From: a virus
Lineage: Duplodnaviria; Heunggongvirae; Uroviricota; Caudoviricetes
DNA: 4,324 nt
Reading direction: 5' to 3' (one strand)
Virus record (IMG/VR): IMGVR_UViG_3300000059_000077
Span: 1 to 4,324 of that record
The position numbers were made by a program, and so were the translations under genes. A model generated the notes under the pieces. It had not been told where the DNA came from. It searched no databases and saw nothing but the letters and a program-made list of their open reading frames with translations. Positions 1 to 290 of this stretch are shown in pieces; the stretch's first letter is position 1; each line of letters begins with the position of its first letter.

Positions 1-42
1 CAGCTTGGAAGGCTGAGGTAATAGCCATTATACGATACCCGC
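1..42 (-). tRNA. tRNA-Gly (anticodon UCC), 5' portion only; truncated by the window edge
   Basis: Reverse complement of 1-42 is GCGGGTATCGTATAATGGCTATTACCTCAGCCTTCCAAGCTG. It folds as acceptor 5' arm, D-arm, and anticodon stem TCAGC/GCTG(A) with loop CTTCCAA (anticodon UCC). It nearly matches E. coli glyT as recalled from memory. The 5' end lies 3 nt downstream of the tRNA-Thr 3' end. Confidence 0.7.
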
Positions 43-45
43 ATA

Positions 46-121
46 TGGTGCCGACTACCGGAATCGAACTGGTGACCTACTGATTACAAGTCAGTTGCTC
101 TGCCTGCTGAGCTAAGTCGGC
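46..121 (-). tRNA. tRNA-Thr (anticodon UGU), 76 nt with encoded CCA
   Basis: Reverse complement is GCCGACTTAGCTCAGCAGGCAGAGCAACTGACTTGTAATCAGTAGGTCACCAGTTCGATTCCGGTAGTCGGCACCA. Cloverleaf by hand: 7-bp acceptor stem GCCGACT/AGTCGGC, D-stem GCTC/GAGC, anticodon stem ACTGA/TCAGT with loop CTTGTAA (UGU), T-loop TTCGATT, discriminator A plus CCA. The T-stem has one A52-C62 mismatch. Confidence 0.85.
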
Positions 122-240
122 ATTGGTTCCTCAGGTGTGGATGAGATGCCCGGATACATAAATTACCCTCCCTTGGAACCGACGAAGAATAATAATGAAT
201 TCCGCTCCTGTTTCAATACAAACAATGTCAGGTATTTAAA

Positions 241-290
241 ACATAATTATACAATATTATAAAAATTAAAAAGTTCGCAAAAAAAAACTA
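241..290 (-). promoter_or_regulatory. AT-rich candidate promoter for the tRNA cluster (two TATAAT hexamers on the minus strand)
   Basis: The minus strand reads ...TTTTTATAATATTGTATAATTATG..., giving perfect TATAAT hexamers at 261-256 and 251-246, the second preceded by TG. A T9 run and TTGCGA sit upstream at 287-275. No clean 17-bp-spaced -35 was found, so this is a weak call. Confidence 0.3.

Follow-up and report, generated by a model that had tools for sequence, protein, structure and literature searches.

A tRNA-Thr(UGU) and tRNA-Gly(UCC) gene pair between Q and the lysis genes of Escherichia coli lambdoid prophages, with a predicted promoter of its own and a candidate role in codon supply

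Transfer RNA (tRNA) genes are familiar cargo of lambdoid phages; Shiga toxin (Stx) phages such as 933W, for example, carry the ileZ-argN-argO tRNA genes upstream of stx. In SfI, genes for tRNA-Asn and tRNA-Thr(UGU) lie downstream of the antiterminator gene Q, with ACA at 17.3% in the phage versus 7.1% in the host, and a codon-supply argument has already been made for this Thr gene (PMC3636060). Phage tRNAs of the Thr(UGU) type also rescue from the P2 prophage nuclease OLD, among them that of the lambdoid phage 21 (PMC12445682); the Thr(UGU) of the lambdoid phage HK446 restores plating, and those of T4, T5, Bas32 and Bas33 rescue to varying degrees (10.64898/2026.07.10.737580). Here we describe a tRNA-Thr(UGU)-tRNA-Gly(UCC) pair at one end of a 4,324-nucleotide (nt) stretch, in the following called the window, which comprises positions 1 to 4,324 of the IMG/VR virus record IMGVR_UViG_3300000059_000077 (Caudoviricetes). 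The pair is a further case of the known tRNA cargo in the Q-to-lysis slot of lambdoid phages; it is very common and already annotated, routinely so by PGAP and in the deposited phages phi467, JLK-2012, SerU-LTIIb and PhiR47_1. In our literature searches we found no paper on this Thr-Gly pair specifically. The reading that we favour, and regard as somewhat probable, is that of a small self-contained prophage tRNA operon, made of near-copies of the host genes thrU and glyT, which would relieve a decoding bottleneck for codons overused by the phage. The main interest of the locus lies in its private promoter and leader, footprinted by comparison, and in a testable link to tRNA nucleases of the OLD type.

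Both genes are located on the minus strand. The tRNA-Thr(UGU) gene (121-46) was called as Thr(tgt) by ARAGORN and by the Rfam model RF00005 with 69.8 bits (gathering score 29, E 2.5e-14), and encodes its CCA end. Three nucleotides (TAT, 43-45, by direct reading) separate this CCA end from the +1 of tRNA-Gly(UCC), of which the first 42 nt, through the anticodon UCC and G42, are found at 42-1 before the window edge ends the gene. The stub carries G1, C2, G3 and the anticodon UCC, is too short to be scored by ARAGORN or Rfam, and its 3' half is visible in relatives only. The locus of E. coli strain 'numer 3' (L004/L175) is 100% identical over window positions 1-290, and its full tRNA-Gly (L004; likewise the full copy in L001) scores 65.6 bits on RF00005, with U6:A67 paired. 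The two tRNAs and the 3-nt gap at 43-45, as named by a sequence-only reading made before our analysis, are thus borne out by ARAGORN, Rfam, direct reading and the identity to glyT. The tRNA-Thr gene is intact and structurally constrained, and so, judged by its full-length copies in relatives, is probably the tRNA-Gly gene.

In the genome of E. coli K-12 the host locus runs thrU, 8 nt, tyrU, 116 nt, glyT, 6 nt, thrT and tufB, the order given in the sequence-only reading. The alignment to the host genes proposed there revealed the expected close resemblance: the window tRNA-Thr is identical to thrU at 74 of 76 positions, with U16C and U20C in the D loop as the sole changes, and the Gly stub matches glyT at 41 of 42 positions, the sole change being C6U in the acceptor stem. 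In the full-length tRNA-Gly of relatives (L004, L001) C6U is compensated by G67A and the pair 6:67 is kept. A base difference in the Gly acceptor stem had been suspected correctly. The A52-C62 mismatch in the Thr T stem, also listed as a possible variant, is no difference, however, as the host thrU has the same mismatch. The identity set of the threonyl-tRNA synthetase (ThrRS), namely G1:C72, C2:G71, G35 and U36, is complete in the window Thr and unchanged from thrU, and the anticodon arm is that of the host. The variant positions do not belong to the known aminoacylation identity elements.

The likeness to the host ends exactly at the ends of the mature tRNAs, whereas no relation to the host locus is seen in the spacer or in either flank. 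The spacer is TAT in 120 of 124 sampled family members; the host has 209 nt including tyrU at this place. An origin by simple deletion of tyrU was rejected, since the TAT spacer and the flanks are unlike the host spacers. Import of a variant allele from another enteric host was rejected as well: the Salmonella loci are equally distant, two Salmonella records in the phage collection having the thrU-tyrU-glyT locus with a 97.6% match to the window, the same as for the E. coli host locus. Species-representative genomes showed the E. coli-like Thr body with C16/C20 only in E. coli and Shigella prophage arrays. C16/C20 with the same D and anticodon arms is the chromosomal state of tRNA-Thr(UGU) in Halomonadaceae, Alicyclobacillus, mycoplasmas and an enterobacterial symbiont. 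A lone tRNA-Thr(UGU), 4 nt off E. coli thrU and with the C16/C20 D loop, was seen in Rahnella bruchi (L152, ~4172-4205). Neither tyrU nor glyT lies within 1.2 kb of this gene, which may represent a further mobile copy beyond Escherichia.

By comparison with its relatives, the pair sits inside a Rac/lambdoid prophage, between Q and a methyltransferase gene on one side and the lysis genes on the other, because identical and related loci continue into lysis, terminase and tail genes. In L004/L175 the pair is followed by two holins, an endolysin, terminase, portal, capsid and contractile-tail genes, and the L175 element lies at the Rac site between uspF/ompN and recE, with the tRNAs ~27 kb inside the uspF/ompN boundary and >17 kb from the recE end of the stretch examined. 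The induced phage vB_EcoS-683R6 and strain XH992 show the same arrangement as L004/L175. The gene arrangement is also the same in the best whole-window match, TUM9812 (92% coverage, 94% identity). In L001, L002, L004, L005 and L175, holin, endolysin, terminase and tail genes are found downstream of the pair and Q, nin genes and hok upstream. Lysis and morphogenesis genes lie past the pair in every relative examined; in the window's own record they fall beyond the window edge. Within the window, Q (2462-1908), a terminator (1828-1806) and the tRNAs (from 121 down) follow each other on the minus strand, as in the lambdoid slot. The sequence-only reading placed the pair at the end of the late cargo; it stands instead at the start of the late region, past Q, tR' and the methyltransferase gene and upstream of holin, endolysin and terminase. 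In L004, ~1.2 kb without annotated genes (10787-11968) separate the tRNAs from the holin, with a strong terminator at 11595-11614 (AACCGCCGCTCCAGGCGGTT, then a T run) ~350 nt downstream of tRNA-Gly. A gap of this kind between tRNAs and holin is the slot of stx or LT-II in other prophages.

For the distribution of the unit we used a 57-nt query across the Thr/Gly junction, built so that the separated host genes give no seed. The query matched 881 of 5426 complete E. coli genomes, with 1102 places in total and up to 5 per genome, and an exact-pattern scan of IMG/VR detected the junction in at least 120 contigs. Two forms were found among 117 sampled loci: Thr-Gly alone (58), as in the window, and Thr-Gly as the 3' half of a four-tRNA array (59), in which Ile(CAU) and either Lys(UUU) or Arg(UCU) precede Thr-Gly with spacers of 1-3 nt. 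Both tRNAs are identical to those of the host in 35 of 124 sampled loci, and the remaining loci mostly mix Thr U16/U20 or C16/C20 with Gly C6:G67 or U6:A67. Among the pair-only loci 45 of 58 have U6:A67, versus 8 of 59 arrays, so that this allele is a marker of the pair-only lineage; the window haplotype (pair-only, C16/C20, U6) ranks second in frequency there. Every position of the acceptor and anticodon stems is paired in all 20 distinct Gly sequences. Across these variants the pair 6:67 is C:G, U:A or the intermediate U:G, and 49:65 is G:C or A:U; since the stems stay fully paired with compensatory changes, purifying selection is indicated.

Several loci depart from this common composition. 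Bodies of the thrU type occur with UUU (annotated as tRNA-Lys; A26G, G35U) or UCU (annotated as tRNA-Arg), and a body of the glyT type with UAC, A38G and a 1-nt acceptor deletion is annotated as tRNA-Val. These anticodon-shifted bodies come from L128 (SerU-LTIIb, 3046-3121), the IMG/VR loci L075 and L119, E. coli H93 and H110, and L178 (VL46, 2457-2527); per the literature, Lys(UUU) and Val(UAC) are nuclease targets too. In the arrays, the body of the second tRNA is homologous throughout, but its anticodon varies by prophage (e.g. L005 6124-6200, L178 2609-2685). It is Lys(UUU) in 38 loci and Arg(UCU) in 14; other loci have Leu(UAA), Phe(AAA) or an anticodon that could not be assigned. This second tRNA is very unlike the host tRNA-Lys. 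In phage JLK-2012 (L127, 3046-3121) a chimeric Thr within an Asn-Thr-Gly array has a 5' half of the phage 21/HK446 type and a 3' half of the thrU type, with G42U and U43C; this chimera indicates that two lambdoid Thr(UGU) lineages recombined within the gene. SerU-LTIIb (L128) contains two module copies, Arg-like-Gly and Thr-Gly (1062-1215 and 2968-3121), around a duplicated holin segment, and here the tRNA pair may have served as a recombination or duplication joint.

Upstream of the pair, a sigma-70 promoter is predicted on the minus strand, with the -35 hexamer TTGAAA at 216-211, a 16-nt spacer and the -10 hexamer TATTAT at 194-189 (10 of 12 matches in the scan), and a predicted transcription start at ~182. 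For comparison, the 120 nt upstream of 24 distinct pair-only units were aligned. On average these sequences are only 56% identical; the columns without any change are TTG in the -35 and TA..AT in the -10, which are the best-conserved positions of sigma-70 hexamers, and the 16-nt spacing is constant. Hexamers at a spacing of 16-18 nt that are conserved across relatives are thus present in the predicted TTGAAA-16-TATTAT. An interim result from BLAST of the upstream regions, that there is no conserved promoter, was overturned by this alignment of divergent sequences. The sequence-only reading had drawn attention to two perfect TATAAT hexamers in an AT-rich region. Both exist on the minus strand (246-251 and 256-261), 30-45 nt upstream of the footprinted promoter, but we reject them as the conserved promoter: the promoter scan found no -35 partner for either hexamer, the four TATAAT in the whole window against 1.9 expected are not significant (reached in 26 of 200 shuffles), and the two are conserved only in the near-identical loci L004, L083 and L124. 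The AT-rich tract on the minus strand that holds them (217-287, a stretch of 23-34% GC) may be a region resembling an UP element, with no conserved promoter.

The predicted start would give a leader of ~60 nt (122-181, minus strand), in which GGUUCC (181-176) pairs with GGAACC (130-125), followed by AAU (124-122) before the +1 of tRNA-Thr. The outer helix GGUUC(C/U):(G/A)GAACC is present in 24 of 24 pair-only leaders, followed by an inner stem of the GGG:CCC type, and the RNAalifold consensus comprises 9 pairs, 4 of them covarying. In this helix 94.7% of the cells are paired, versus at most 72% in slid controls, and 13 cells are changed on both sides, whereas shuffles give 4.2 (0 of 500 as high as observed). 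The evidence for the leader is comparative, because the z-score of the window sequence alone is only -1.67. The helix might serve as 5'-end protection or as a processing site. The conservation of the private promoter and the leader hairpin suggests that the tRNAs are made in the lysogen too, and we infer that transcription of the units does not depend on Q, probably occurs in lysogens as well and is supplemented by late read-through. The array form has a different promoter, a conserved TTGCA(A/G)-17-TATTAT within 60 nt upstream of tRNA-Ile (e.g. L178 2764-2830) with a GC-rich discriminator (CCTGCGCCC) ending at the tRNA-Ile +1. This promoter is similar to those of stable RNAs under stringent control and implies a precursor with almost no leader.

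Codon supply appears to be the best-supported function of the pair as far as sequences can tell. In the host genome glyT is the only gene for a UCC anticodon. ACA is read in K-12 solely by tRNA-Thr(UGU) (PMC12445682). Codon use per 1000 codons was compared between the late genes of a related prophage sharing the tRNA unit of the window and 45 K-12 genes. The prophage genes reach 15.0 for ACA, 11.6 for GGA, 55 for ACA+ACG and 37 for GGA+GGG, versus 5.6, 5.5, 19 and 16 in the host genes (Fisher p 1e-4 to 1e-6). The pattern is the same in a second relative (L001), and overall the use of ACA/ACG and GGA/GGG in related prophages is 2-3 times that in host genes. The window's own seven genes give 12 for ACA, 15 for GGA, 30 for ACA+ACG and 30 for GGA+GGG. 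In the TUM9812 relative the values for late and early-nin genes are 9.7 and 16.3 (ACA), 15.2 and 13.5 (GGA), 27 and 29 (ACA+ACG), and 37 and 27 (GGA+GGG). The eight codons with the highest prophage/host ratio are AGG, AGA, AUA, CGG, ACA, ACG, GGA and GGG, and the Ile, Arg, Thr and Gly tRNAs of the Thr-Gly family decode seven of these. The suggestion that phage tRNAs can supplement codons, and the comparison of ACA and GGA proposed along with it, therefore receive direct support from the relatives.

Under this reading, the private promoter would drive the unit, probably in the lysogen as well, and Q-modified read-through would add to this in the lytic cycle, when gene dosage is high. Both tRNAs would then be freed by RNase P and 3' exonucleases, and the extra Thr(UGU) and Gly(UCC) would relieve a decoding bottleneck in phage genes and in other horizontally acquired genes, by the same logic as for the AUA- and AGA/AGG-reading tRNAs (ileZ, argN, argO) of Stx phages. 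Some points weigh against it. The promoter and the start site are predictions, and the codon figures derive from late genes of relatives and a 45-gene host sample, the window's own late genes being outside the window. The 2-3 fold enrichment is modest, and for ACG and GGG the host has further tRNAs (thrW, glyU). Finally, the two tRNAs are exactly the pair most depleted by P2 OLD, a coincidence which codon supply does not predict.

This coincidence leads to a different explanation, the main rival, which we regard as rather unlikely: the pair would replace host tRNAs cut by a tRNA nuclease of abortive infection, the prime candidate being the Toprim protein OLD of the P2 prophage. OLD restricts lambdoid phages by cutting the anticodon stem of the host tRNA-Thr(UGU) and other tRNAs; it kills via cleavage of host ThrU at a paired CNG motif (28-30, 40-42) with A37 (PMC12445682). 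In a 2026 preprint, OLD activation depleted Thr(UGU), Gly(UCC), fMet, Val(UAC) and Pro(UGG) more than 2-fold (10.64898/2026.07.10.737580), and the window's pair corresponds to the first two of the five tRNAs named, which is striking. The paired CNG motif (CAG/CUG) and A37 are found in glyT as well, and the Thr(UGU) genes of phage 21 and HK446, part of an Asn-Thr pair that is identical in both phages, occupy the same slot between Q/tR' and holin. Moreover, Thr genes with G42C/U and U43C occur in 5 of 124 family members, and also in JLK-2012 and VL46; these changes destroy the 3' CNG and shorten the stem, which is the published type of resistance change. However, the anticodon arms of the window Thr and Gly are identical to those of the host, as in ~95% of the family. 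When the ThrU arm was put into a rescuing tRNA, protection was abolished, so that resistance maps to the anticodon arm (PMC12445682), and in both OLD studies over-expression of host ThrU protected little or not at all (PMC12445682; 10.64898/2026.07.10.737580). Compared, by the criteria of PMC12445682, with the resistant tRNA-Thr21 and tRNA-Thr6, the window Thr shares the anticodon UGU, but C28-U29-G30 and C40-A41-G42 are intact as in ThrU and the stem has the full 5 bp (ACUGA/UCAGU). By these published criteria the predicted window allele is outside the OLD-resistant class. U16C/U20C as nuclease evasion was rejected as well: C16/C20 is native to chromosomal tRNA-Thr(UGU) in many distant bacteria and need not be an evasion change, and OLD resistance maps to the anticodon arm. 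The U6:A67 allele of Gly tracks the lineage, a further point against counter-defence. Because the C16/C20 D loop is normal in so many distant bacteria, these variant states are evidently well tolerated and are not to be taken as evidence of evasion. Bacterial Schlafen nucleases do not match, their reported targets being Lys, Ala and Met tRNAs and not Thr or Gly. The replacement of nuclease-cut tRNAs, raised in the sequence-only reading, is thus highly relevant in view of the literature on P2 OLD, but the window allele has none of the published resistance features. A broader version, which we hold to be slightly less probable again, takes the Thr-Gly cassette for a dedicated two-tRNA countermeasure of lambdoid prophages against OLD-family Toprim nucleases in an ongoing arms race, providing precisely the two tRNAs that suffer the strongest depletion. 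Host-like alleles would act by sheer supply from a strong private promoter or through D-loop and acceptor-stem changes, and the arms race would be seen in the 42/43 alleles, the anticodon-shifted derivatives and the chimeras with the phage 21 lineage.

The remaining explanations ascribe less to the pair. Captured host tRNA DNA could hitch-hike in the mosaic Q-to-lysis junction with no selected function, perhaps only as a recombination joint. This slot is a known hot spot for cargo, some members are degenerate or anticodon-shifted (the Thr body with UUU or UCU, the Gly body with UAC and the 1-nt deletion), and the chimeric Thr of JLK-2012 documents recombination inside tRNA genes. We nevertheless consider a mere passenger improbable in view of the junction in 16% of complete genomes with up to 5 copies each, the fully paired stems with compensatory changes, the promoter hexamers and covarying leader helix conserved amid divergent flanks, and the precise packing of the tRNAs at 1-3 nt. 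Native tufB-operon genes, or an attL/attR tRNA at a prophage boundary, are the least credible of all. Only the near-identity of the mature tRNAs to thrU and glyT speaks for such an origin, whereas the pair lacks tyrU, thrT and tufB as neighbours and resembles the host operon neither in its flanks nor in its spacer. Query matches as such (rather than the junction) occur in 5421 of 5426 genomes at a median of one place per genome, and sampled single-place matches were the tyrU-containing host locus, so that an intact host locus is present in addition. Compensation for a tRNA gene disrupted by integration was dismissed on the same count, together with the Rac site of the relative's prophage. At this site the tRNAs of L175 lie deep inside, ~27 kb from the boundary, and the relatives have Thr-3 nt-Gly without tyrU and phage genes on both sides. 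Both the tufB locus and an attachment-site (att) tRNA are therefore rejected on gene order, flanks and prophage context, and were already refuted for the relatives. The sequence-only reading was right that the pair is phage-borne and no integration-site tRNA, but not for the reason given, that the tRNA 5' end faces the phage genes; it is the phage genes on the far side that exclude an att site.

The recognisable genes of the window all share the minus strand and are arranged as at a lambdoid nin/Q/late junction. At its upstream end lies a complete hok/sok type I toxin-antitoxin locus (3829-4152, Rfam sok 110.7 bits), whose Hok-family open reading frame (ORF) is MKQQKAMLIALIVICLTVIVTALVTRKDLCEVRIRTGQTEVAVFTAYEPEE. 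A weak isrK-like Rfam match (3739-3820; 30.5 bits, below the gathering score) ends in a strong intrinsic terminator. A 57-aa ORF (MKIEELREIFSENGLY...) occupies 3408-3581, in the interval from the hok locus to DUF1367; in TUM9812, the closest whole-window relative, fragments of an FkbM-type methyltransferase replace it. According to the ORFs and the annotation of relatives, DUF1367, DUF1364 and the DUF1133 Q-type antiterminator follow (3360-1908). The last of these (1908-2462) is labelled 'DUF1133 family protein' or 'antitermination protein Q' in relatives. Downstream of Q a short unit resembling pR'/tR' was read from the sequence at 1806-1881. It ends in the terminator CCCGC-TTTTT-GCGGG with eight T (1828-1806), which the terminator scan did not report, though it is obvious by direct reading. 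A second weak isrK-like match (1808-1881; 19.8 bits, below the gathering score), which likewise has a strong intrinsic terminator at its end, has the appearance of the short pR'-tR' transcript. The 1806-1881 region is conserved with L178, where the tRNA array directly follows the tR'-like unit. In the window, a small minus-strand ORF and then a DNA methyltransferase gene (288-1334, minus strand, 348 aa) intervene as cargo between Q/tR' and the tRNAs; homologues of the latter are labelled 'DNA-methyltransferase' in L001, L004 and phage phiP27.

About one in six complete E. coli genomes contains at least one extra prophage Thr(UGU)-Gly(UCC) unit, and such units shift the copy number of two tRNAs that are otherwise of low abundance and encoded by single genes. 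This bears on the expression of horizontally acquired genes, including nearby toxins, on models of codon adaptation in temperate phages and on the tRNA-cleaving defences described since 2024. If the tRNAs are made in the lysogen, the unit would be a lysogenic-conversion trait. The overlap with the targets of P2 OLD, the classic excluder of lambda, offers a test of tRNA cargo as counter-defence in temperate phages, beyond T4- and T5-like phages.

Among known systems, the host thrU-tyrU-glyT-thrT-tufB operon resembles the pair in its mature sequences (74/76 and 73/75 identical, with many family members at 100%), and it shares the A52-C62 mismatch, the positions of aminoacylation identity and the anticodon arms. 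Unlike the host operon, the window unit has no tyrU, thrT or tufB, a 3-nt instead of a 209-nt spacer, unrelated flanks, a predicted promoter of its own and a prophage location. With the tRNA-Asn(GUU)-Thr(UGU) pair of phage 21, HK446, Sf6, SfI, BTP1 and relatives it shares the slot from Q/pR'/tR' to holin and the anticodon UGU; the tRNAs of phage 21 and HK446 were shown to counter P2 OLD, and SfI has the ACA bias. However, the Thr genes of phage 21 and HK446 are identical to each other and far from thrU, with the arm GUCGC/GCGAA, no CNG and a 4-bp stem, whereas the window Thr has the host arm ACUGA/UCAGU; their partner is tRNA-Asn and that of the window Gly. The phage 21 tRNAs directly follow tR', whereas the window pair has its own predicted promoter and leader. 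Like ileZ-argN-argO and the Ile(CAU)-Arg/Lys-Thr-Gly arrays, the pair is tightly packed between Q and lysis or toxin genes and reads codons rare in E. coli and frequent in the phage. Of 117 sampled loci, 59 have Thr-Gly as the 3' half of an array of this kind, but there tRNA-Ile comes right after TTGCAA-17-TATTAT, whereas the window has Thr-Gly only, with a different promoter and a leader. The tRNA clusters of T4 and T5 likewise include Thr(UGU), and that of T4 also Gly(UCC); these belong to virulent phages and their tRNAs are diverged from the host and nuclease-resistant, in contrast to the almost host-identical pair of a temperate phage described here.

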